From an uncultured bacterium (lineage in GTDB: Bacteria; Patescibacteriota; Minisyncoccia; UBA6257; 2-01-FULL-56-20): a stretch of DNA of 64,000 bases. The notes beneath the pieces are model-generated. The model searched no databases. It saw only the letters and a list, made by a program, of their open reading frames with translations, and was not told the origin of the DNA. Of the stretch, positions 21,790 to 63,008 are shown one piece after another (the first letter of the stretch is position 1; every line of letters begins with the position of its first letter). A program made the position numbers and the translations under genes. The stretch is taken from contig CAWHOC010000016.1 of NCBI GenBank assembly GCA_963830935.1, forward strand, positions 13,852 through 77,851. Direction: 5' to 3'.

Positions 21790-22111
21790 CGATCTTCGCC
21801 GCGAGGATGAAGTCGTTCTCAAACAGTCCGTTCACGGCATGGGTGGTAAGGTCGAGGCGCACTTTGTTATAAAAGATGTACATGTCGGGATGGTGGCCTT
21901 CGGCCTGCGCGATATCTGCAACGGCATTCACGAACTTCATCGCTTCTACGAAGTCCTTAAACGTGAACTCGCGCGTGATCTTTTTCTCGTCATCGGACAC
22001 TTTCCAGTCCGGCACCTGCGCGGCATATTTTTGCACATACTCGTGATCGAGCGCCGACATGCCGCCTTCGCAGGGAACGCAATGTTTTTCTTTAAGGACG
22101 TTTACAATCAT
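21773..22111 (-). CDS. pterin-4a-carbinolamine dehydratase (PCD/DCoH)
   Basis: EGHHPD motif and typical length. Confidence 0.75.
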   Translation of the reverse strand: MIVNVLKEKHCVPCEGGMSALDHEYVQKYAAQVPDWKVSDDEKKITREFTFKDFVEAMKFVNAVADIAQAEGHHPDMYIFYNKVRLDLTTHAVNGLFENDFILAAKIDAANA

Positions 22112-22491
22112 GGCATTGGATTATTTTCAACGATCTCTACCTTTCCTTCCATACAATTCAAAATAAATGTTTTATTCAACTTTTTAAAAAGTTTTGTTCC
22201 GAGCAAAATGATGTCGGCGGCATGGATGTCAATGGGCGTATTTATATACTTTCCATCCACGCCAACCCGTCCGTCACAAACCAGATGTGATGACGTCGAC
22301 CCATCTGCAAGCATATTTTCCTGGACGCCGGTGAGGATAAGGCCGAGAGGGAGCGCCTCAATGAGCGGGATCTGGATATATCCATTGAATCCGGAATCCA
22401 CCAAGGCGGCAAGTTTTTTGGTGGCTCCGCCGAACCCTTTTATTTCAACCTCAACGATCGGTTGGTCATTGCCATTAAATATCCCAAGCAT
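22108..22491 (-). CDS. retropepsin-like (clan AA) aspartic protease, low GC
   Basis: ALVDSGFNGYIQIP, a D-S/T-G active-site region, on a ~125-aa scaffold. Confidence 0.55.
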   Translation of the reverse strand: MLGIFNGNDQPIVEVEIKGFGGATKKLAALVDSGFNGYIQIPLIEALPLGLILTGVQENMLADGSTSSHLVCDGRVGVDGKYINTPIDIHAADIILLGTKLFKKLNKTFILNCMEGKVEIVENNPMP

Positions 22492-22747
22492 ATTTCTTTG
22501 TGGAAAAGGACGCGCCTATTTTCTGTATGCTGCCGATCTGGACAATATAAAATAGCTTTTCTCCGAAGTTCTTTTTTGCCTTTTCAATAGCAACCGACCG
22601 ATCAGGGTCAATCTCATATTTTTCCGTTTCCACGTCAATGACGGCAAATTGCCCCATAAAATTTTTTTCCAAAAAGTCCTTATTGGCAGCGTAAAAAACG
22701 TTTCCCCGACGGACCAATGTTTCAAGGGAGGGAGGTAAATTTGACAT
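22475..22747 (-). CDS. small hypothetical protein; overlaps the start of the retropepsin-like gene by 17 nt (probably translationally coupled)
   Basis: ORF; low GC; 17-nt overlap. Confidence 0.4.
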   Translation of the reverse strand: MSNLPPSLETLVRRGNVFYAANKDFLEKNFMGQFAVIDVETEKYEIDPDRSVAIEKAKKNFGEKLFYIVQIGSIQKIGASFSTKKYAWDI

Positions 22748-27871: not shown

Positions 27872-30589
27872 CTACCAACGCTCTATCATCAGTATTGTTC
27901 CCGGACGGAAGATCTGCCAGACCTCTTCGGTGATGAACGGCATGAAGGGATGGAGTACGATGAGCGATCCGAGGAGCAGATGCTCAAGGAGGGCATATGA
28001 CTCGCTCTTTTCCGCGTCGGTGCCGTCGGCCAGCGCTTTCTTCTCCGCCTCTATGATCTTGTCGGCGAGCGTGTGCCAGACATAGTGGTAGAGTTTTTCT
28101 CCGGCAAGATGGAATTCAAAATCGTCGATGTGTTTGGTAACCTCCGCCTTCAACGCCGCGAGCTCTTTTATTTCTTCACGCCCGGCGATATGTTTTGCTG
28201 CGCCTGCGGCATCGAACTTCTCCGGCTTGTTCATCTGGATGAAGCGCGCGATGTTCCAGATCTTCGTGGAGAAGTTGCGGTAGCCCCGGACTCGGTCCTC
28301 GGACAACTTGATGTCGTTGCCCGCGGCGGCGCCGATCACGAGCGAGAGGCGAGTGGCGTCCGCGCCGTACTTATCCGCCATCGTGAGCGGGTCGATGATG
28401 TTGCCGAGCGACTTGGACATCTTGCGACCCTTGTCGTCGCGGACGAGACCGTGCAGGTAGACGCGGCGGAAGGGGACGTCGCCCATCAGCACCTCACTCA
28501 TCAGGATCATGCGCGCCACCCAGAAGAAAATGATATCGTAGCCGGTCTCGAGCACGGAGTTCGGGAAGTACGTCGCGAGGTCGTCGGTCTTCTCCGGCCA
28601 GCCGAGCGTGCTGAATGGCCAGAGCCCGGAGGAGAACCACGTGTCGAGCGTGTCGGGGTCCTGCTCATAACGGTCGTGACCACAGGCGGAACATTTATTT
28701 TTTGCGATTTCGATCTCCATGATCGACCCGTTGCTCATCGCGGGCGGTATTTTCCCTTCCGGAAATCCTCGCAGAAATGATGTGAGCGAACCGATGGCAC
28801 CGCCGTGAGTGACAAGAAGAACATTCTTATCTTTATATTTCTTTTGATATTCCTCGAAGGCCTCTTTTACGCGCTTGCTTACGTCGCGCCATGTTTCCAC
28901 GCCACCGCGTTCATTGTCGAGATCGGTTCGGGTCTTATAGGTATCTGGAAATTTCTCCATTACCTCTGTTCTTAGCAGCCCCTCCCACGTTCCCTCGTCC
29001 ATCTCGCGGAGGCGTTTATCGAACATTGGCGTGACACCGACCCTTTCCCCAATAATAGTGGCGGTCTCTTTGCATCGCGAAAGATCGGACGAAATGATGA
29101 CGTCGATATGTTGATTCGCCAACGTTTCGGCGACGGTTCGCACTTGTTCCCGCCCGGTGTCGTTCATCGGGATCTCTCGGTGTCCCATGTATCGCTCCTC
29201 CTTGTTCCAATCGGTCTGACCATGGCGCGTGATAAACCATTTTGATGTTATCTCGGCATTCACTTGCGGCTCGCCGCAGTGCATGCAATACCATACCGGG
29301 ATCCGGTGTCCGAACCAGATCTGGCGTGAGATGCACCAGTCGCGCAGGTTGTCGATCCAGTTGAAATAGATCTTTTCAAATCGCTCCGGCAGAATTTCGA
29401 TGCCGTCGTCCGTGACCGCGGTTTTCATCAACTCCTTTAATGTTTTTTGCTCCTTGCCGAATGGTTTATTGACCGCGATGAACCATTGTAATTTGGGCAA
29501 CGGCTCGATGATGCCGCCGGTACGCTCGGCGGTGGCCACGTTCTGCGTGATCTCTTCTTCTTTTTCTATTAAGCCGTGCTTGCGGAGTTCCTCCGCAGCG
29601 ATCTCTCGTGCTTCGACCGTCTTCTTGCCATGGACGAGGGGATTTTCCACCGTCATCTTTCCGTATTCATCTATTATTTGCTTGAACGGCAGATCGTGAC
29701 GCTCCGCGATCTCCCAGTCGATCATGCTGTGCGCGGGCGTGACGCCGAGCGCACCGGTGCCGAAATCTTTTTCCACGGATTCGTCCGCGATCACTTTTAT
29801 AGAGAGCGGGGTGCCGCAGAAATCCACATCGAATGTTTTACCGACAAATTGTTTGTAGCGCTCGTCGGAAGGATGCACCGCAACGGCGATGTCGCCGAAC
29901 TTTGTTTCAAGGCGCGTGGTGGCGATGGGGATGGGGAACTTCGTGCCGTCGGCGAGCATGCCGTAGCGGAACGTATAGAGTTTTGTTTTGCGCTCCTCGT
30001 AGACGATCTCGTCGTCGGAGATGGTGGTCTGGCCTTTGACATCCCAATTGATCACGCGATGGCCGCGATAGATCAGGCCGAGGTCGTACATCTCCTTGAA
30101 CGCGGTGCGGACGGCGACTTCGCGCTTGTCGTCGAGCGTGTATGCCTCGCGGCCCCAGTCGAGCGATGCGCCCATGCGCTTCACTTGATTGACGATCGTG
30201 TCATGGCTTTCCTGCGCGAACGCGCGAACGCGCTTCAGAAATTCCTCGCGGCCGAGATCGTGGCGATTCTTTCCTTCCGCCTTCACGATATCTTTTTCCA
30301 CTTTCGACTGCGTCGCGATCGCGGCGTGGTCGGTGCCGGGGATCCAAAGCGTGCGCTTACCGTTCATCCGCGCGTAGCGCACCATGATGTCCTCGATCAC
30401 GAGCATCGCCGCGTGGCCCATGTGCAACGTTCCCGTCACATTCGGCGGCGGAAGCACGATGGAGAACGGCTCGGCATCTTTCGCCGTTACGCCTTTCTCG
30501 ATGCAGACATCGGGATCGAAATATCCCGCCTCTTCCCACATTTTATAAATACGGGATTCGACTTCGTTCACGTCGTAGCGGGGTTCCAT
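27872..30589 (-). CDS. valS: valyl-tRNA synthetase with a complete histidine-phosphatase (PGAM-like, RHG...H) domain inserted into the zinc knuckle
   Basis: HMGHA, editing domain TRLETKFGD / GTGALGVTPAH, KMSKSLGN. Between VWYCMHCGEP and CSACGH...DTLDTWFSSGLWPFSTLGWP lies FITRHGQTDWN...LLVTHGGAIGSL, ~190 aa. The insert DNA is ~50% GC versus ~60% for the rest. Confidence 0.75.
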   Translation of the reverse strand: MEPRYDVNEVESRIYKMWEEAGYFDPDVCIEKGVTAKDAEPFSIVLPPPNVTGTLHMGHAAMLVIEDIMVRYARMNGKRTLWIPGTDHAAIATQSKVEKDIVKAEGKNRHDLGREEFLKRVRAFAQESHDTIVNQVKRMGASLDWGREAYTLDDKREVAVRTAFKEMYDLGLIYRGHRVINWDVKGQTTISDDEIVYEERKTKLYTFRYGMLADGTKFPIPIATTRLETKFGDIAVAVHPSDERYKQFVGKTFDVDFCGTPLSIKVIADESVEKDFGTGALGVTPAHSMIDWEIAERHDLPFKQIIDEYGKMTVENPLVHGKKTVEAREIAAEELRKHGLIEKEEEITQNVATAERTGGIIEPLPKLQWFIAVNKPFGKEQKTLKELMKTAVTDDGIEILPERFEKIYFNWIDNLRDWCISRQIWFGHRIPVWYCMHCGEPQVNAEITSKWFITRHGQTDWNKEERYMGHREIPMNDTGREQVRTVAETLANQHIDVIISSDLSRCKETATIIGERVGVTPMFDKRLREMDEGTWEGLLRTEVMEKFPDTYKTRTDLDNERGGVETWRDVSKRVKEAFEEYQKKYKDKNVLLVTHGGAIGSLTSFLRGFPEGKIPPAMSNGSIMEIEIAKNKCSACGHDRYEQDPDTLDTWFSSGLWPFSTLGWPEKTDDLATYFPNSVLETGYDIIFFWVARMILMSEVLMGDVPFRRVYLHGLVRDDKGRKMSKSLGNIIDPLTMADKYGADATRLSLVIGAAAGNDIKLSEDRVRGYRNFSTKIWNIARFIQMNKPEKFDAAGAAKHIAGREEIKELAALKAEVTKHIDDFEFHLAGEKLYHYVWHTLADKIIEAEKKALADGTDAEKSESYALLEHLLLGSLIVLHPFMPFITEEVWQIFRPGTILMIERW

Positions 30590-30664: not shown

Positions 30665-31003
30665 ATGGCTGAAGAAAGGGACGGAAAGATAATTTCGACA
30701 GGGAACACGACGTGCGCGTGCGGTCCCGGATGCGTCTGCGGGTGCGGGCATCATTGCATGCATCGCGTGCTGTGGTGGATCGTGGGCATCGTGGCGCTCA
30801 TCATTGTGTTCTGCCTCGGCGTGAAGGCGGGAGAGTTCAGTGATGCATTGCATAGCATGTACGGCGGCTATTACCGCGACTATCCGGTGATGACCCGGGT
30901 GTACAACAGCGGATATGGCGACGGCGGTGTCGCGGTGCCGGTGACGGGCAGCGCTGCGGGCGGTGCCACGGGCACTTCGGGCGCAGTTCCGGCCGGGCAG
31001 TAG
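30665..31003 (+). CDS. small Cys/His-rich membrane protein (possible metal-binding)
   Basis: CACGPGCVCGCGHHCMH followed by one TM helix and a Gly-rich tail. Confidence 0.4.
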   Translation: MAEERDGKIISTGNTTCACGPGCVCGCGHHCMHRVLWWIVGIVALIIVFCLGVKAGEFSDALHSMYGGYYRDYPVMTRVYNSGYGDGGVAVPVTGSAAGGATGTSGAVPAGQ

Positions 31004-31091: not shown

Positions 31092-32223
31092 ATGATCGAG
31101 TTCACGGTATTAAAAAAATCTAAAAAATCCGCGGCGCGGCTTGGGGTTTTGAAGACGCCGCACGGCGAAGTTATGACGCCCGCGATCGTGCCGGTGGCCA
31201 CGCTTGCGGCGGTAAAGGCCCTACGCAGTGATGAGATCGCGGCGACGGGAACGCAGCTCCTCATCTCAAACACGTATCATTTGCACCTCCAGCCGGGTGA
31301 AAAGATAGTGAAGGCCGCGGGTGGCATCAATAAGTTCATGAATTGGCCGAAGCCCACGATGACGGATTCCGGCGGCTTTCAAGTATTCTCGCTTGGCTTC
31401 GGGCGCGATCTCGGCGTCGGCAAGATCGCCATCAAGCAATATCCGGGCAAGTTGGAACGGGCGATCGAGAAGGGCAACCAGCCGAGCAACGTGAAGATCA
31501 CGGAAGACGGCGTGGAGTTCCGCTCGCCACTCACGGGCGAGAAAATGTTCCTGGGGGCGGAGAGTCCATGGACATACAGAACGACGCTCGGCGCGGACAT
31601 CATGTTCGCGTTTGACGAATGTCCGCCGCCGGGTGCCACGCATGAATATGTGAAACAGTCGCTCGCGCGGACGCACCGCTGGGCAAAGCGTTCGCTCGCG
31701 GCGCACAAGACAAATCAGGCCCTGTACGGCATCATGCAGGGTTCACGAGTTCGAGGATCTACGGAAATCGAGCGCGCGGGCGATTGCGCGGATGTCATTT
31801 GACGGTTACGGCATCGGCGGAGATATCGGGGAATCGGCGATCGAGCTGAAGAAGGCGCTCCTGTGGACGATCCCGCTTCTCGATCAACGCAAGCCGCGCC
31901 ACTTGCTTGGTATCGGACACATGGCGGACATCGAGCCGATCATAAAGCGTGGCGTGGATACGTTCGACATCACGGTGCCGACGCACTACGCGCGGCGCGG
32001 TATCGCGTTCACGAGCAAGGGTCGCGTAGATTTCGGCAAAGCGGCGCTGCTCAAAGATAAAGGCCCGATCGACGCATCGTGCGAGTGTTTGATCTGCCAG
32101 AAATATCAGCGCGCCTACATCGCGCACCTCGTACGCGCGAACGAGATCACCGGCGGTGCATTACTCACATTTCACAATCTATTTTTCTTCAACGCGTACG
32201 TGGCGAAGGTGCGCGAAAAATAG
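31092..32223 (+). CDS. tgt: queuine tRNA-ribosyltransferase; one frame break ~31755
   Basis: TDSGGFQ, ALYGIMQG, then FDGYGIGG and the zinc site CECLIC in the next frame. Confidence 0.75.
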
Positions 32224-53675: not shown

Positions 53676-55772
<2,097 letters not shown>

Positions 55773-55901: not shown

Positions 55902-56020
55902 CTGTTTTAGCGACCCGTTCCAGAATTATCTAGGCAACATTGTCCTTATCCCGGAATGATTAAGAAAAGATTAAAAGAGACTTGGAGTATGGGTAAATTA
56001 GATATATGATTTAGTGACAA

Positions 56021-57514
56021 ATGGGAAAAACAACATCTATAACTGGACAGTTGAATACGAAAATCGACGAAAAAAGGAAGAAGGTTTCTAGGGAAACTTT
56101 ACTTAACGACCCAGCTTTATTAGATGCCCAAGTTGCTATCAAGCTTCTTGAAAAAAAATACGAGAAGAAGCTTGAGAAAAATTATGAACTCAGCAGATCT
56201 CTTGTTAGTTTTCAAGCTAATAAAACTGAGCCAGGATATCGATGGTTTAAATTTAAAGAAGGATATTCTTCGTCTCTCGTAAAATATACACTTAAAAAAC
56301 TTGGCATTAATCCAAAGAAATCGATTGATCCCTTCGCTGGTAGCGGAACGACATTATTTGTCACTGCTGAATTAGGCGCTGAAGGAACAGGTATCGAGCT
56401 TTTACCAATAAGCTCAGAAATTATAGCGGTTAGAAAATATTTATCTAGTAATAAAAAACATAAAGCTTTAAAGATTATTGATGAATGGTTAGAAAAAAAA
56501 CCTTGGGAAAAACATAAGCATAAAATAACTCTTAATCAGTTAAGAATTACCAGTGGGGCTTTTCCGGATTCTAATAAAGACCTTTTGGAGCGTTATATGG
56601 CGCTTCTTAATTCGGTTGGCGATCCTGAAGTAAAACGAGTTTTAAGATTTGCCCTCCTCTGTATTTTGGAAGAAATTAGCTATACCCGAAAAGATGGACA
56701 GTATTTGAGGTGGGATAAAAGATCTGGCAGAAAGCAGGGAGCACAACCTTTTGATAAGGGAGAAATTAAAAACTTTAGTCAGGCCGTGGTTACAAAATTA
56801 GCCACAATTAAAAATGATTTAATGGGAGATACTTTAAGTAATAATCTTTTTCCTATTAGACTTGCAAAAGCCAATACATCAAACGTTAATGTTTTGGATG
56901 GTTCATGTTTAGAGATTCTTCCGAAACTCCAATCTAATTCGCATGATTTTTTAATGACCTCGCCACCTTATTGTAATCGTTACGATTATACGAGGACGTA
57001 TGCTCTTGAATTAGCCCTTTTAGGGATAGACGAAGCAGGGATTCGCGATTTAAGACAAAAAATGCTTTCAGCTACTGTTGAAAATCGAGATAAGCCAGAA
57101 TTAAATCTCCTTTTCCCTAAGACATTTAAAAGCGCGACGAAAGCATTTGATCAACAAATAGCTTTACAGAAGATTCTTTACTACCTAGATGTATTAAGGC
57201 AAAAGAAAGAATTAAATAACCCTGGCATTTTTCGAATGGTAAAAAATTACTTTTTTGAAATGTCTTTAGTAATATTTGAATCTGCTCGTATTCTAAAGAA
57301 AGGATCGTATTTTATTATGGTAAATGATAACGTACGATATGCCGGAATAAATATTCCAGTAGATCTTATATTATCTGATTTTGCAGAAAAAGCAGGCTTC
57401 GGAGTAAAAAAAATATGGGTTTTACCTAGGGGCAAGGGGAATAGCAGCCAACAAATGGGAAGTTATGGACGAGAAGAAATGAGAAAGTGTGTCTATATTT
57501 GGCAAAAGTTATAA
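56021..57514 (+). CDS. DNA amino-methyltransferase (N6-A or N4-C), low GC, intact
   Basis: Motif I DPFAGSGTT and motif IV TSPPY; GC ~33%. Confidence 0.65.
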   Translation: MGKTTSITGQLNTKIDEKRKKVSRETLLNDPALLDAQVAIKLLEKKYEKKLEKNYELSRSLVSFQANKTEPGYRWFKFKEGYSSSLVKYTLKKLGINPKKSIDPFAGSGTTLFVTAELGAEGTGIELLPISSEIIAVRKYLSSNKKHKALKIIDEWLEKKPWEKHKHKITLNQLRITSGAFPDSNKDLLERYMALLNSVGDPEVKRVLRFALLCILEEISYTRKDGQYLRWDKRSGRKQGAQPFDKGEIKNFSQAVVTKLATIKNDLMGDTLSNNLFPIRLAKANTSNVNVLDGSCLEILPKLQSNSHDFLMTSPPYCNRYDYTRTYALELALLGIDEAGIRDLRQKMLSATVENRDKPELNLLFPKTFKSATKAFDQQIALQKILYYLDVLRQKKELNNPGIFRMVKNYFFEMSLVIFESARILKKGSYFIMVNDNVRYAGINIPVDLILSDFAEKAGFGVKKIWVLPRGKGNSSQQMGSYGREEMRKCVYIWQKL

Positions 57515-58390
57515 ACCAACTAACCATTGAGCCAAATCCTCAACCTGTTCTTTGGTCCCTAAATTCGCGGCGAATGCTAAATTACTATTTTTCAGATCAG
57601 CATAAATTTCTTTCGCCATTTCTATTTCTATTGCAGCTCCCACGAAAAATAGAGAGGGTTTATTGAAACCTTTTCGAATACGTGCAAGTGCTCCACTCGC
57701 CGTCTTTCAATGTTCATCAGCTCCAGCGGGATCTATCCCACCTTTAAGCTCCCCGAAAGCAAGATAATTTTTAGGATCAGCAAACGCTTCTTTAGTCGAA
57801 TGTTTCGAAGTATCTAAAAGAATAACATCAATGTTCTTTTTAATAAGTTTAAGCTTATAATCAAAAACCAAATGTCGTTTTGGCCAGCTTATGCTAGTTA
57901 TCTTACCCGACTTTTTTCTAAAAATCTCAGGAGATATTTTCTTTAAAGCTAAGGCCGCTATAAGTGAGTCAGTTAATTTTAAAGCGGCAGAAGCACCTAT
58001 AAAATTTCTCATAGATCCTCCTAGGGTATCTCCCTTAGTTAAAAGATAGCGATGCACTAATTGCTCTCTAGCAGTGATTACACCGCTTTTAAAAATCTTT
58101 CTTAGGACGACTTTAAGTGAATCTTCGATATCTTTTTCCTTTAAGTGACTTGATGCCTTATCCGAAAAACCTGCCGCGGCTAAAACCTCTTTTTGGAAGG
58201 ACTTTAACTTGGACAATTGGTTAATATTATTAACTTTTTCAAGGGCGGTTCTAAATTCAACAGCCCTTACCAAATAAGGTGTTGATTTATCTGTTTTTGT
58301 AAGGGCTTGGAAAAGAAATCCGGCCTTTATGGCTTCAGGCGAAGTCACTAAATCTTGATATCCCTTAATATGCTTAGGTTTCATGGCCAA
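57512..58390 (-). CDS. probable type II restriction endonuclease (partner of the adjacent m5C MTase); one frame break ~57706; its stop abuts the MTase stop (ttaTAA)
   Basis: Position between the two MTases; ELKGGIDPAGADEH segment; low GC; the C-terminal ~65 aa continue in another frame. Confidence 0.35.
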
Positions 58391-58555
58391 GAGGAGTCGA
58401 TATTACTTAATAAATTCAACAACTGTATCAAAATTTAATCATTTTTTAATGAATTGTGCAAATTTTTCAACCAGAGTATATTTAAATAGGATTTAATATA
58501 TGGACACCTTAATTTCGCAAAGAGCAGTCCTACAAATATCTCGCAAATATTATCA

Positions 58556-59793
58556 ATGGCGCCTCAACCCAAGGCTCTTGACCTTTTTGCCGGGACGGGA
58601 GGATTCTCAGAAGGGTTCATTCGTGCAGGTTATGAAATGGTTGGACATGTGGAAATGGACCAAAAAGCTTGCGAAACTCTTAAGACACGAATGGTTTATC
58701 ATGCATTAATAAAAAAAGGGGAAATAGGAGAGTATATAAAATACATACTTGGACAAACAACCTTAGATGAATTGATCCAAAAATATGGTCTTCAAAAGGA
58801 GAGAGAATTCAGTTATGTGTAATAAAATTGATAAACATAGCTATCCGGAAATTATAAAAAATATAAAAAATCGTCTAAATGGACAAAAAATAGATATTAT
58901 TATAGGTGGACCGCCATGCCAAGCATATTCTTATATTGGTCGTGCACGCGATAAAAACAATATGAAATGGGATCATCGTAAGTTTTTGTATAGATATTAC
59001 GTCGAATTTTTAAAAGAATTTAAACCAAAAATATTTGTTTTCGAAAATGTTCCCGGCTTGGTAAGTTCTGGAAGTGGAATTTATCTTAAGCAAATGCGAA
59101 AGTTAATGAAGGAGGCGGGGTATGAGACTAAATATGAAATCCTAGATGCGGCGAATTTTGGAGTACCGCAACATCGCAAGAGGGTGATACTTGTAGGTTG
59201 GAATAAAAAATCAACATTAAAGGATTATCCGAACTTCTCAGAAATTGATCGCGATTACATTGTTAAGGATTTCCTTTTTGAATTACCTAAAATTTCTTCC
59301 GGAAAGGGCCAACAGATTAAAAAGTTTTTAAGTAAGAATGTTCTTTTGGAGAATTTGGGTATTGTAAATCCCGAATTCAGTTTTTTAATGAACCACATAG
59401 CACGCCCAAATATATCGAGAGATCTCGAAATTTATAGAAGGGCGGTGGTTTCAAAAAAAGAAGGAGAGAATATAAAATATAATACTTTACCTCAAAAATT
59501 AAAAACTCATAAAAATGAGACTAGCTTTCTCGATAGATTTAAAGTTGTCGACTTCAAGGCTAAGGGTTCGCACACCGTTGTTGCTCATATAGCAAAAGAT
59601 GGACATTTTTACATTCATCCCGATATAAAACAAAATAGATCCTTAACTGTTCGTGAAGACGGCCCGATTACAGACCTTTCCGGATGACTATAAATTTGAA
59701 GGAGAGAGAACCGCTCAATTTAAACAGATTTGGAAATGCTGTCCCACCAATGTTATCTTTCGTCATCGCAAAAGAATTAAGAAGCTACCTATA
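58556..59793 (+). CDS. dcm: DNA (cytosine-5)-methyltransferase; three frame breaks (~58800, ~59655, ~59737)
   Basis: Motif I LDLFAGTGG, IV GGPPCQAYS, VI ENV, VIII QHRKRV, IX LTVRE..ARLQTFPDDY, X QIGNAVPP (the last two in shifted frames). Confidence 0.7.
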
Positions 59794-59801
59794 ATCTCCA
59801 T

Positions 59802-61188
59802 GGATGGAAAAGAAGAAAAATTTAAGCTTAGACCAAGAGCTAGAATCGTAAAGACTTTCGGAGAAGAACTAATCAGTAATGATTATGTAGCAATTATCGA
59901 GTTAATTAAAAACTCCTATGATGCTGATGCAAAATTGGTCGAAGTAATATTCGAAAATCCACTTAGTGAAGAATCGGGGAAAATAATTATTCGTGATAAT
60001 GGAATCGGAATGTCTCCGGAAGATGTTAAGGGTGGATGGATGGAGCCAGCTTCTATAATGAAGCTGGCAAAAAAGGAAGAGTAAATCGAGGCACATCTTC
60101 TGGGCGAGAAAGGTATTGGAAGATTTTCGGCAGCAAAACTTGCCTCGAATCTTACCCTTATTACACGAATAGGAGAGTTTTCCAGAGGTTGCTGCTCAAT
60201 TTCATTGGGCTGATTTTTATGATCCAGAAAAATATCTGGAATGAAATAGAGGGTGATTGGAAAACTAACGAAATAGGAGAGATTAAAGAATCTGGAACGA
60301 TTTTAATCTTGGAAAAATTAAATTCCAAATGAAATAGAATCTTCGCTTTAAAGAATTAAAGACTTATCTCTCACGTCTTTGGTAAATCCACTTAGGCCCA
60401 CAAAAGATTTTCAGATAATTTTAAATCTTCCAGATGAGTTTAAGGATTATATAGGAGTTGTAGGTCCTCCGGATTCGCTTCAAAAGCCAGATTATGTTAT
60501 TCGAGGAAGTTTGAATAAGGAGGCCATATTAACCGCGGAATATCAAAGTAAGAGGCATATAGAGAAACGCATCATGTACGACGATGTTCTCAGGTTGGAT
60601 TCTGGGAATCTACCATTATGCGGTCCAATTTCTTTTGAGTTTCGTATTTGGGATAGGGACAATCTCAAAGATTTAGCAATAGAATTAGGTACTGGAATCA
60701 GCGATATAAGAAAAGATTTAAATGAAATTGCTGGAATTAGCATATTTCGGGACGGTTTTCGTATTTCTCCTTATTCTTGGACCTCGATAATGATTGGCTT
60801 CGCCTTGATATAAGAAAGAAGGGTGCAGAACCCTACTTTGAGAATGAGTAATAATCAAATTGTGGGAGATGTCCTGATTACTAGAGCTGATAATTCAGAA
60901 CTAAAAGATCAAACCAATCGCGAAGGAATTGTTGAGTCTGATGCATTTAGCGATCTTAGAGAGGTGGTTGATTTTATTTTAGATCTCGTAGAAGATGCAA
61001 GATATAAAGAGAGACGAGAATTAGATACTAATCCAGATCGTAAATATAGACTTTTTCGTGATATAGATCTTGCTTCTGTCCGAGCCGTTATACAAAAAAA
61101 ATTACCCGATGATAAAGAGACGGAGGCTGCTCTTTTAGAAAAGAGAAAGAAATTAAAGATAGAGTTGAAGAATTCAGAGACTTTATAG
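59802..61188 (+). pseudogene. MORC/MutL-like GHKL ATPase (HATPase_c_3-type), at least 5 frame breaks
   Basis: N-box IIELIKNSYDADA; G1 IIRDNGIGMS; G2 GEKGIGRFSAAKL in a second frame; the rest (GTILILEK..., ISIFRDGFRISPYS, DWLRLDIRKKGAEPYF...) is scattered over all three frames. Confidence 0.5.
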
Positions 61189-61861
61189 TTAGATATCGCC
61201 GCCTTTCGCACTCTTGGGTCAGTTGTAGATATTATTTTGCATGATGCGGGGGCTGCTTTATCGAGAGTTAATAATGGAACAAAGGTTATCGAAAAAGAGT
61301 TAAAAAAATAAAAGATCCTTCCGAGCCACGCATTAAAGAATGTTGCAGCTGTTTCGGTGGGTCAACAGTTACTTGGAGAGCTTTTTAAGCGCCTCGAACC
61401 ATTTGGAGGAAGGGGAAGCGACAAAAGATATTTTAGTAACGAAAGCAATTGGGGAAGTATTTAAATTTTGAGCGATCTGATAAAAAACCTTTCTATAAAA
61501 ATTATACTTTCAGAAAAAGCTGAAGAAATATTTCTGAGTCGGATTTCAAGATGATCTTTCTCAATCTTATTGATAATAGCCTTTATTGGTTAAAAAAAGT
61601 TCCTGAATCGGAAAGAATAATAGAGGTTCTTTTAAAGAAGGGTGAAAACAATTTAGAGATCATTTTTAGCGATAGCGGTCCGGGAATATCATTCGAAGAT
61701 GCGCCTTTCATTTTTGATCCTTATTACACAAAAAAACCTGGGGTATTGGTTTGGGCCTTACCATCGTTGGAGAATTTGTCGCAGAAGCTGAAGGATCTTT
61801 CGATCTTGTCAAAAGGGGCCCCTAAAAGGTGCCACTTTTAGAATAAAGTTTCCTTTAAATT
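61189..61861 (+). pseudogene. cytoplasmic histidine kinase (HisKA + HATPase_c, no sensor domain), at least 4 frame breaks
   Basis: H-box-like ILHDAGAAL; N-box NLIDNSLYW; G1 IFSDSGPGI; G2 GGIGLGL in a shifted frame; C-terminal LKGATFRIKFPL. Confidence 0.45.
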
Positions 61862-63008
61862 GACTTTGATGGAAAAGATTAAAGTCCTAATTGTCTATTA
61901 CTATATTATTATTGCTGGACAGCTTTTGCAATTATTGAATGGAGCAGAAATAGCAGATTGTAAGATTTTAGCAGAAGCTATTGGAGATTTTGATCGAGCA
62001 AAGGAACTTTTGGCTATAGGAAATTATGACGTTGTTATTTTGGACGTTTATAGAGGGGGGCCCTCAGAAGAAAATACGGATCTTGCAGGAAGAGAAGTTC
62101 TTGAAACAATTAAAACTACCGCGCCATTGGCAGTTATCTTCTATACCGGTCTCACGAGTCATGTTCAAGAATTAGCTTCTGATGTTGTAAGGGTGTTATC
62201 AAAAACAGGGGGCAATATTGAAAATGAGTTAAAACTCCTTTTAGAAACAGGAATTCCTCTAATGAGACAAAAAATTACAGGACACGTAAATGAAATCCTA
62301 AAGGATTATTATTGGGAGTTCATTGATAAAAACTCTAGCTTAATTCAAGATTCTCAAAATAAAGCTCTTTCGGAATATCTTCTCTTGAGGCGATTAGCGG
62401 CTACTCTTACAAGAGATGGAGTCCATAAAATATTTGGCGACGCCATTTCGTCTGACAAAATCCATCCTTTAGAATTTTATATTTTTCCCCCTATAGATGA
62501 GGCAGAGTTCGAAACGGGAGATATTCTTGAGAAGGATGGTGTCGGCTCCTTCCACGTGGTTTTGACCCCATCATGTGATTTTGCAAATCATAAAGCAAGT
62601 TTTATCTTATTGGTAAATGGAACTCTGCTAAAAGAAACTGACGAATATATTTCCTACGCCGCTGATAGAAGTAACGTTGCCGTGAAAGAGACTCTAAGTA
62701 GGGTCATAGGTTCTAGGCGCGGTGACCGATATTTTTTTCTTCCTCGGAGCGAACTTATGGCTATGCCTGACCTAGTTTTAGATTTTCAGAATTTAACAAA
62801 TCACCAACTTGAAGGATTTAGCGGCTATAAAAAAATTGGAAGAATAGATGATCCATTTGTGCAGGATATGCTCGCTACATTTATAAGAAATCAAAATCGT
62901 CCTGGATCTCCGGATCTGGATGTCACATATATTTTGGACTATATAAATAAAGATATAGACCCTCCAACGCAAGAAACAATTCCACAGGCACATGATAGAA
63001 AAGAATAA
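61860..63008 (+). CDS. atypical receiver domain (acidic pair replaced by Y-Y; phospho-acceptor Asp, Thr and Lys retained) fused to an uncharacterised ~250-aa C-terminal domain; intact
   Basis: KVLIVYYYIII...DVVILDV...VIFYTGLTS...VVRVLSK; I recognise no motif in the C-terminal domain. Confidence 0.45.
   Translation: MTLMEKIKVLIVYYYIIIAGQLLQLLNGAEIADCKILAEAIGDFDRAKELLAIGNYDVVILDVYRGGPSEENTDLAGREVLETIKTTAPLAVIFYTGLTSHVQELASDVVRVLSKTGGNIENELKLLLETGIPLMRQKITGHVNEILKDYYWEFIDKNSSLIQDSQNKALSEYLLLRRLAATLTRDGVHKIFGDAISSDKIHPLEFYIFPPIDEAEFETGDILEKDGVGSFHVVLTPSCDFANHKASFILLVNGTLLKETDEYISYAADRSNVAVKETLSRVIGSRRGDRYFFLPRSELMAMPDLVLDFQNLTNHQLEGFSGYKKIGRIDDPFVQDMLATFIRNQNRPGSPDLDVTYILDYINKDIDPPTQETIPQAHDRKE

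Follow-up and report, generated by a model that had tools for sequence, protein, structure and literature searches.

How does a complete histidine phosphatase come to lie within the catalytic domain of an essential aminoacyl-tRNA synthetase, and what does it do there? The question is posed by valS, the gene for valyl-tRNA synthetase (ValRS), on a 64,000-nucleotide stretch of contig CAWHOC010000016.1 from an uncultured bacterium (the window, by which we mean the whole stretch analyzed). The gene is presumably the single housekeeping valS copy of a Patescibacterium of Minisyncoccia/Paceibacteria type, and in one open reading frame (ORF) it encodes a ValRS that houses a phosphatase between two pairs of cysteines. 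The explanation we favor, and consider reasonably probable, is that this is a cassette-borne, exchangeable phosphatase of the PhoE/PspA/CobC type that makes the ValRS bifunctional. Synthetases are highly conserved and well studied, and catalytic additions to them in bacteria, beyond editing domains, are rare; an intact phosphatase inside the catalytic domain of such an essential enzyme is something that specialists would not expect, and it has arisen repeatedly across a large group of uncultured bacteria.

The whole protein of 905 amino acids (aa) passes both NCBIfam models for valS, the equivalog NF004349 with 888.2 bits (cut-off 704) and TIGR00422 with 835.6 bits (cut-off 612.1). Its AlphaFold2 model has an overall pLDDT (the per-residue confidence score) of 88 and a pTM of 0.78, with values of 89-96 in the region of the insert, and the best Foldseek match of the whole model is 1gax_A, the ValRS of Thermus thermophilus (E=9e-56, TMq 0.72). 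The HIGH and KMSKS signatures, the CP1 editing domain (aa 203-348 by match to 1wka) and the anticodon-binding domain are all recognizable, and the body of the synthetase is intact; the enzyme is predicted to aminoacylate with valine. The features on which the argument depends are as follows (A1 is an alignment of 33 sequences, fractions of 35 refer to fusion proteins, and L001 and L002 are related loci without and with the insert, respectively).

27872..30589, minus strand: valS, ValRS with embedded phosphatase cassette; uninterrupted ORF, 905 aa plus stop
29288..30589, minus strand: ValRS N-terminal part, aa 1-434, comprising the Rossmann first half, CP1 editing, CP2 and the final strand HRIPVWY; aligned to 1GAX residues 32-422
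30413..30424, minus strand: HIGH signature in the form HMGH, aa 56-59, by motif position; G58 and H59 invariant in A1
29288..29302, minus strand: left conserved arm IPVWY, aa 430-434 (ATC CCG GTA TGG TAT), by comparison of the junctions of the window, L002 and L001
28682-29287, minus strand: module from first to last Cys, aa 435-636, by motif positions
29276..29287, minus strand: first Cys pair, C435-M-H-C438; conserved in 34/35, invariant in alignments A1 and A2, aligned to 1GAX C417/C420
28694..29266, minus strand: inserted branch-1 histidine phosphatase lobe, aa 442-632 (Pfam domain aa 452-633)
29219..29227, minus strand: catalytic RHG, R455-H456-G457, with H456 the phospho-acceptor by homology; R455 35/35, H456 34/35, G457 35/35, invariant in A1
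28805..28807, minus strand: second catalytic His, H595 in LLVTHGG; conserved in 34/35, invariant in A1
28682..28693, minus strand: second Cys pair, C633-S-A-C636; conserved in 34/35, aligned to 1GAX C438/C441
28643..28663, minus strand: right conserved arm QDPDTLD, aa 643-649 (CAG GAC CCC GAC ACG CTC GAC), by comparison of the junctions
27875..28681, minus strand: ValRS C-terminal part, aa 637-905, comprising the Rossmann second half, KMSKS, SC fold and anticodon-binding helical domain; aligned to 1GAX residues 436-705 of 862
28409..28423, minus strand: KMSKS signature, aa 723-727; K723, S725 and K726 invariant and S727 nearly so in A1

The C-terminal coiled coil of canonical bacterial ValRS, which in T. 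thermophilus contacts the tRNA elbow, is absent from this ORF, which ends within Anticodon_1 (profile positions 6-104 of 148) and can be aligned to 1GAX only as far as residue 705 of 862. The ValRS of the whole clade ends in this way inside the anticodon-binding domain, at Anticodon_1 position 104/148 (27872-28100 in the window), and the same truncation is found in insert-free relatives of ~710 aa.

What, then, is the insert? An initial annotation, made from the DNA sequence alone, had described it as a complete histidine-phosphatase domain placed in frame into the zinc knuckle of ValRS, and our results agree with this in most respects. Pfam splits tRNA-synt_1 into two stretches, the first at aa 14-464, and nests between them, at aa 452-633, a His_Phos_1 domain (PF00300) that has an E-value of 1.7e-50, scores 171.8 bits where 21.7 would suffice and covers profile positions 2-186 of 194. 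All of the motifs that had been quoted are present: VWYCMHCGEP at aa 432-441 (29267-29296), FITRHGQTDWN at aa 452-462, LLVTHGG at aa 591-597 and CSACGH at aa 633-638 (28676-28693). The distance between the two Cys pairs, given as ~190 aa, is 194 aa, as opposed to ~17 aa in 1GAX. The coordinates, in contrast, were right only as to region: the interval 28560-29240 is shifted by ~50-120 nt, leaves out the first CxxC and takes in ~120 nt of ValRS, the true span being 28682-29287. The two CxxC motifs, flanked by the PxW strand and the D(T/C)WF(S/E)SG helix, align with the WYCEDC...TSCEACG knuckle in the CP3 subdomain of 1GAX; the four Cys are thus homologous to this zinc knuckle of T. thermophilus ValRS and are predicted to bind zinc. 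A hypervariable and peripheral subdomain, CP3 connects CP2 with the second Rossmann half; in isoleucyl-tRNA synthetase (IleRS) it binds zinc in T. thermophilus and not in other species, and its topology differs among all of the solved IleRS structures (PMC7191050).

The branch-1 catalytic set (R455, H456, R505, E529 and H595, together with N462) and the four Cys are retained in at least 34 of 35 fusions, and the catalytic residues and the Cys are invariant in A1. Modeled alone with AlphaFold2, the module reaches a pLDDT of 93. The phosphatase has the alpha/beta/alpha fold of the His_Phos_1 family, its first and last beta strands in the model of the whole protein being aa 447-455 and 623-629, and it is thus confidently predicted to fold as a separate lobe, a point for which the initial annotation had proposed just such a model. 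The best matches among structures are PspA, PhoE, GpgP and CobC, to which the insert is 24-31% identical. None of the cut-offs of the characterized NCBIfam subfamilies was reached, however (CobC 128.8/162.9, PspA 93/350, GpmB 84/261, with dPGM and SixA failing as well), and therefore the substrate is not readable from homology.

Could such an unusual gene be the product of an assembly or annotation error, in which valS was joined chimerically to a separate phosphatase gene or an error produced the continuous ORF? The assembly of the window gives some cause for asking. Beside valS, the queuine tRNA-ribosyltransferase gene tgt (31092-32223, plus strand) has a frameshift near 31672-31745, where the L001 ortholog is intact (393 aa), and fusA, encoding EF-G (53676-55726, plus strand), is broken into three overlapping ORFs, with the GTPase domain split and domains II-V following; two frameshifts in the essential fusA suggest indel errors of the assembly, pseudogenization or recoding being less likely. 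Confirmation of the fusion from other assemblies therefore matters, the more so as the insert is also atypical in its GC content at third codon positions (GC3). That confirmation is abundant. More than 30 independent ValRS proteins from metagenomes, with overall identities as low as 55%, share this in-frame arrangement and its junctions, and a junction-specific DNA pattern gave 63 matches in GTDB species representatives, 58 of which, spread over the Patescibacteria, were verified as ValRS-phosphatase fusions. The distribution among relatives, which the initial annotation had left for checking, thus extends to at least 58 species representatives, under names that include Moraniibacteriota, Paceibacteria, Lipton-, Kaiser-, Falkow-, Wolfe-, Portnoy-, Colwell-, Nomurabacteria and Minisyncoccia, with backbones 38-90% identical to the ValRS of the window. 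Between the window and its closest insert-bearing relative, the ratio of nonsynonymous to synonymous divergence (dN/dS) has a value of 0.067 for the insert, as opposed to 0.121 for the flanks. The phosphatase is therefore under strong purifying selection, and this codon-level selection spans both junctions. A second copy or a donor gene of the insert, which had been named as a finding that would tell against the fusion, was sought in the window and none was found within it. We therefore reject an assembly chimera, given the dozens of independent assemblies that reproduce the architecture and both of its junctions, and consider an artefact of any kind extremely improbable; the closest stand-alone phosphatases are in any case only ~40% identical to the insert. 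For the same reason, and because those stand-alone genes lie in unrelated contexts and are in some cases Firmicutes-like, recent capture of a stand-alone gene was rejected too. The earlier reading of an acquired domain rather than an error is thus upheld by the uninterrupted ORF, the conserved residues, the GTDB fusions and the signature of purifying selection.

The composition of the insert, already noticed as low in GC, suggests a foreign origin. Its GC content is 0.504, against 0.563 and 0.590 in the two flanks, and its GC3 is 0.576, against 0.74 and 0.81; among the other genes of the window below 56 kb mean GC3 is 0.776, and values as low as that of the insert occur in only 1.4% of their 190-codon windows. 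Nor is this a peculiarity of one genome, as GC3 of the module lies under that of the host gene in 33/35 fusions (median -0.10, p=4e-9), with the deficit larger at higher host GC. Weak codon bias in a poorly conserved segment was considered as the cause and judged less likely, since the flanks fit the genome average, the insert is the outlier and the pattern recurs in 33/35 hosts. Import of the module from an AT-richer pool is thus a better reading than relaxed codon selection.

Did the phosphatase enter a zinc knuckle that was already there? The initial annotation had supposed so, and while the CxxC flanks support the placement, the knuckle does not seem to have been pre-existing. The closest insert-free ValRS relatives, with flanks up to 90% identical, have no Cys at the site and carry in its place a 15-aa CP3 hairpin, VWY-KGDEIFAGVAAPQGDGW-TQDP; therefore the knuckle and the phosphatase always occur together, and the unit that is gained or lost is the whole CxxC-phosphatase-CxxC cassette, replacing the 15-aa hairpin. 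The order TGT - small ORF - valS - PrsW protease - HSP20 is common to L001, which has no insert, and to the window and L002, which do, so insert-free and insert-bearing valS are orthologs at one locus and not paralogs. The synteny gives no clue to function, as the order is the same either way and no linked kinase or toxin was seen in the loci read. The small ORF (30665-31003, plus strand, divergent from valS) encodes a protein of 112 aa whose N-terminus is rich in Cys, CACGPGCVCGCGHHC, with a transmembrane helix after it, and has no Pfam match; ORFs of similar size stand at the corresponding place in L001 (112 aa) and L002 (87 aa), with or without the cassette.

The evolutionary history of the cassette appears to be separate from that of its host. 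In a tree built from the flanks alone the insert-bearing proteins are scattered to the tips. Within the near clade (flank identity of at least 84%), in which 9/32 proteins have the insert, presence and absence require 5-8 parsimony steps in 200/200 bootstraps, with ~8 for shuffled labels. Insert and backbone distances are hardly correlated (Spearman 0.13-0.19), and the nearest neighbors by the two measures agree in only 20/59 fusions. Individual pairs make the same point: P0007 and P0008 have backbones 0.11-0.13 from that of the window and inserts ~1.0-1.1 away, and L031 and L036 have an insert distance of 0.32 and a backbone distance of 0.87, whereas for L031 and L030 the relation is reversed (insert 1.10, backbone 0.27). 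In several close pairs synonymous divergence of the insert is saturated at a flank dS of ~1. The phosphatases of ValRS knuckles all fall in one cluster, and the comparisons together suggest that the ValRS cassette has one origin, is dispensable (because close orthologs at the same locus are without it) and has a history decoupled from the backbone. No residue of the ValRS body co-varies with the presence of the insert (the maximum is 0.28 of 0.85 bits); as no column was informative, the ideas of co-adaptation and of an extended linked tract within that body were rejected.

How would such a cassette move? At the DNA level the flanks ATC CCG GTN TGG TAT and CAG GAY CCC GAC ACG CTC GAC are almost identical across allele types, and we propose that homologous recombination within these near-invariant stretches, IPVWY and QDPDTLDTWFSS, carries the cassette from one valS allele to another. 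Simple deletion cannot restore a conserved short hairpin, and therefore two-way allelic exchange is the economical explanation; given the incongruent histories and the composition of the insert, exchange by recombination has probably occurred. The same pattern could be produced by a selfish in-frame mobile element that spreads by invading valS alleles without benefit to the cell, an idea that derives some appeal from the constancy of the site, which lies between highly conserved flanks of an essential gene, from the polymorphic presence among close relatives, incongruent phylogenies and foreign composition, and from the DUF559 endonuclease-like or Y1 transposase domains that occur in some IleRS. 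We nonetheless consider it very unlikely. There is no HINT or intein signature, no endonuclease in the cassette, no terminal repeats and no Cys/His-Asn splice motifs; His_Phos_1 accounts for the whole insert, and the C-terminal junction, ...AKNK|CSAC, is without His-Asn. The domain moreover remains in the mature protein, its catalytic residues are strictly retained, and the purifying selection on these residues and on the domain as a whole (omega 0.067) would be unexpected for a functionless passenger.

If the phosphatase is not a passenger of that kind, what does it contribute? In the mechanism we propose, the small CP3 would have been replaced by a cassette consisting of CxxC, a 13-aa strand, a complete PhoE/PspA/CobC-type histidine phosphatase and CxxC. 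The zinc knuckle would staple the entry and exit strands together and, with the terminal strands of the phosphatase side by side, the 190-aa lobe would project from CP3 and leave the Rossmann fold and aminoacylation undisturbed. The resulting polypeptide would be bifunctional, a ValRS and a phosphomonoesterase working via a phospho-His456 intermediate with E529 as acid, and the property under selection would be phosphatase activity beside the synthetase, on a small phosphomonoester made or bound there.

Support for selection of this association comes from beyond the ValRS knuckle. When the module profile was searched against 1.84 billion representatives it gave 3593 matches at E<=1e-30 and recovered, besides full-module ValRS, stand-alone phosphatases (~190 aa), tandem forms (~410 aa) and further synthetases of class Ia in which copies are embedded. 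Type-2 IleRS (those with a DUF5915 C-terminus) of Gracilibacteria, Peregrinibacteria and Peribacteria have one to three copies in 109/122 proteins examined, at three sites, of which S1 is homologous to CP3, S2 follows DCWFESGSMPYA and S3 precedes the anticodon-binding domain. Both catalytic His motifs are kept in at least 124/130 of these IleRS-embedded copies. The type-2 IleRS entries (P0390-P0506, P0241, P0245, P0323, P0371 and L070:8001-12260) are up to 1859 aa long. Among ValRS, the variants P0360 and P0231 hold two to four phosphatase copies of a different lineage, one in CP3 without Cys and one after QWF..VNK, and thereby indicate that CP3 received a phosphatase a second time, in a separate event. 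Each insertion site has its own phosphatase lineage, and the ValRS-knuckle lineage is closer to stand-alone enzymes (median distance 1.3) than to the IleRS lineages (1.6-1.8), therefore there have been at least five independent captures. In P0450, moreover, a non-homologous HAD phosphatase (aa ~566-759) occupies the region between the halves of the catalytic core in which P0371 has its histidine phosphatase (aa ~550-724). Captures at no fewer than five sites, together with an unrelated HAD phosphatase in the same region, make it likely that a tethered phosphatase activity was selected.

Phosphatases are not the only domains to have settled in these enzymes. Some IleRS have a P-loop kinase ~50 residues past the phosphatase, and other extras include GNAT, DUF559, a Zeta_toxin-like kinase, an alpha/beta-hydrolase and a MafB19-type deaminase, to which AAA_33/AAA_18 kinases, the HAD phosphatase and a Y1 transposase may be added as further variable domains. 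The ValRS P0048 has an ASCH-like domain of ~130 aa (aa ~437-570) at the same CP3 site, with neither phosphatase nor Cys, and L052:4888-7986 and L060:2413-5457 combine the phosphatase cassette with an ASCH/DUF3850 domain inserted after DTWFSSG.WPFSTLGW. The ValRS fusion of the window is a case of multi-domain, bifunctional synthetases and not a categorically new system. The initial annotation knew of no described aminoacyl-tRNA synthetase with an embedded phosphatase, and this stands for the literature we searched, in which no description of synthetase-embedded histidine phosphatases was found; a 2026 survey of domain insertions identifies synthetases as favored hosts and leaves histidine phosphatases unmentioned (PMC13114784). 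It does not stand for the sequence databases, which hold many, and JGI auto-annotation already reads 'isoleucyl-tRNA synthetase/phosphohistidine phosphatase SixA' for an IleRS. Embedded phosphatases in the Val and Ile synthetases from the Candidate Phyla Radiation (CPR) are thus widespread and present in databases, and apparently undescribed in the searched literature.

Is the association with the synthetase itself functional, or does the essential gene simply offer a safe berth? We lean toward a phosphatase that is functionally coupled to the synthetase, judging from the pattern of captures. The leading guess as to its substrate is of nucleotide type, for example a 2'/3'-phosphorylated tRNA end or adenine nucleotides, and the company of P-loop kinases and ASCH domains favors a nucleotide or tRNA-end substrate. 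PhoE-type enzymes are promiscuous toward nucleotides, which also counts in favor of a nucleotide substrate. Coupling specifically through the tRNA end we regard as unlikely, and a nucleotide or tRNA-end substrate is weakened by the capped small-molecule fold, the unshifted charge and the scattered insertion sites.

The alternative is a hitch-hiking metabolic phosphatase, a promiscuous house-cleaning enzyme that rides in an essential, constitutive gene of a streamlined genome and whose substrate is unrelated to ValRS, tRNA or adenylates. The best matches in both structure and sequence are indeed small-molecule phosphatases, there is neither a shift in charge toward nucleic-acid binding nor any co-adapted residue in the ValRS body, and the cassette is dispensable in close relatives; CP3 is, besides, tolerant and hypervariable (PMC7191050), and synthetases are favored hosts for insertions (PMC13114784). 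Yet a mere passenger would hardly be expected to have been acquired in independent events at five or more sites of only two paralogous synthetases, to show no other host domain among the best 150 relatives, and to be replaced in the same IleRS region by a non-homologous HAD phosphatase. The accompanying domains (ASCH, P-loop kinase, GNAT) have a tRNA or nucleotide flavor, and as loop insertions are much rarer than terminal fusions, their repeated fixation suggests a selected association. We consider hitch-hiking somewhat unlikely.

A different answer would be that the phosphatase is a counter-measure in conflict, which repairs or detoxifies an attack on Val/Ile charging and is traded like a resistance cassette, an idea that overlaps with the coupled phosphatase we favor. 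Candidates for what it acts on are a tRNA 3' end that carries a 2'/3'-(pyro)phosphate or has been cut by a nuclease, a synthetase that has been phosphorylated, and a phosphorylated adenylate-mimic antibiotic. The patchy, near-random distribution, horizontal exchange and foreign composition of the cassette would all fit, as would the fast evolution of the insert sequence around a conserved catalytic core and the company, in IleRS, of modification and resistance enzymes (GNAT, P-loop kinase, Zeta_toxin-like, hydrolase, deaminase). The pairing of kinase and phosphatase also recalls the end-healing polynucleotide kinase-phosphatase, T4 Pnkp. However, PADLOC-DB has no family matching the insert or the whole protein at E<=0.01, and membership of a defense system was rejected on that account; the loci read show neither a toxin gene nor a kinase gene linked to valS, the fold is of the capped small-molecule kind without a basic surface, and in Gracilibacteria IleRS the phosphatase is near-universal rather than patchy. 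Taken together these points make a counter-measure of this sort rather unlikely.

Several observations weigh against the coupled, exchangeable phosphatase that we prefer. The fold of the insert is nearest to capped-pocket small-molecule phosphatases and not to protein or nucleic-acid phosphatases, and in the charge comparison embedded copies were not more basic than their stand-alone relatives; a nucleic-acid-binding surface on the lobe was rejected as a candidate on the latter ground. The spread of insertion sites over the synthetase argues against strict geometric coupling. As close relatives manage without the cassette its role must be non-essential, and the confinement to Val and Ile synthetases applies to the best 150 relatives, more distant ones being able to include other hosts. 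Finally, the trees are neighbor-joining and approximate, and the case for exchange between alleles is one of incongruence and composition.

A more general scheme would make the Val and Ile synthetases of the CPR docking platforms for swappable cassettes (histidine and HAD phosphatases, P-loop kinases, GNATs, ASCH) whose targets in cis would be the cognate tRNA end, the aminoacyl-adenylate, or toxins and antibiotics directed at the synthetase, so that repair or resistance is built into the target enzyme and traded by recombination within an essential gene. This is speculative and we would give it only a small chance. If it were true that the phosphatase acts at the synthetase, whether on the tRNA end, a nucleotide or an inhibitor, it would represent a new layer of charging maintenance or defense in minimal genomes. 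Even as a hitch-hiker it would be a natural case of a large enzyme swapped in and out of an essential gene via conserved flanks, and the zinc-stapled insertion site would be of interest for protein engineering as well as informative about gene flow in the CPR.

Three other features of the window deserve brief mention. From 56000 to 64000 GC drops abruptly from ~58% to ~35% (GC3 ~0.28), in a block with genes for an N6/N4 DNA methylase (56021-57514), a BsoBI-like restriction endonuclease (57707-58390, minus strand), a C5 cytosine methylase (58785-59687) and a NOV_C-domain protein (62992-63807); the block represents a restriction-modification island gained by horizontal transfer, or else a chimeric join. 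At 15626-15699 (plus strand) is a tRNA-like gene with an odd anticodon loop, which ARAGORN calls 'tRNA-???' and to which the Rfam tRNA model gives only 37 bits. An isolated low-GC gene (0.466; GC3 0.51) lies at 21839-22552 (plus strand) amid a region of 59% GC.

How does the fusion compare with systems already known? The T. thermophilus ValRS (1GAX/1IVS) is of the same family and fold and has the four-Cys knuckle (C417/C420...C438/C441) between the PxWY strand and the DTWFSS helix; its inter-Cys loop, however, is ~17 aa long where that of the window holds a whole enzyme, and the window ValRS is without its C-terminal coiled-coil domain. PspA (4IJ5), PhoE (1H2E), GpgP (6S2Q) and CobC (6E4B), the nearest relatives of the lobe in structure, are free-standing enzymes with defined small-molecule substrates, whereas the termini of the insert are tied into the zinc knuckle of another enzyme. 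The IleRS of NF040702 (ileS_w_GNAT) are also CPR-type class Ia synthetases with an embedded foreign catalytic domain, and many of them carry His_Phos_1 too, although the synthetase, the embedded enzyme and the sites are all different and the window ValRS scores 176 bits against a cut-off of 1999; a published functional study of NF040702-type IleRS or of a ValRS fusion was not found in the literature searched. The Rv2228c-type RNase H/CobC-like acid phosphatase (PRK07238) likewise joins a nucleic-acid enzyme to a CobC/PhoE-like histidine phosphatase, and the insert matches its phosphatase half with 113 bits, below the cut-off of 326, but that protein is an end-to-end fusion with RNase H and not a loop insertion in a synthetase. 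T4 polynucleotide kinase-phosphatase combines a P-loop kinase with a HAD domain, and PFK-2/FBPase-2 a P-loop kinase with a histidine phosphatase; the window ValRS, in contrast, holds the phosphatase only, and the resemblance is one of domain composition alone. Like inteins, lastly, the cassette lies in frame at a conserved position of an essential gene, is patchily distributed and shows signs of horizontal movement, but it is without the HINT fold, the splice-junction residues and the homing endonuclease, and is instead a conserved enzyme that is kept in the mature protein.

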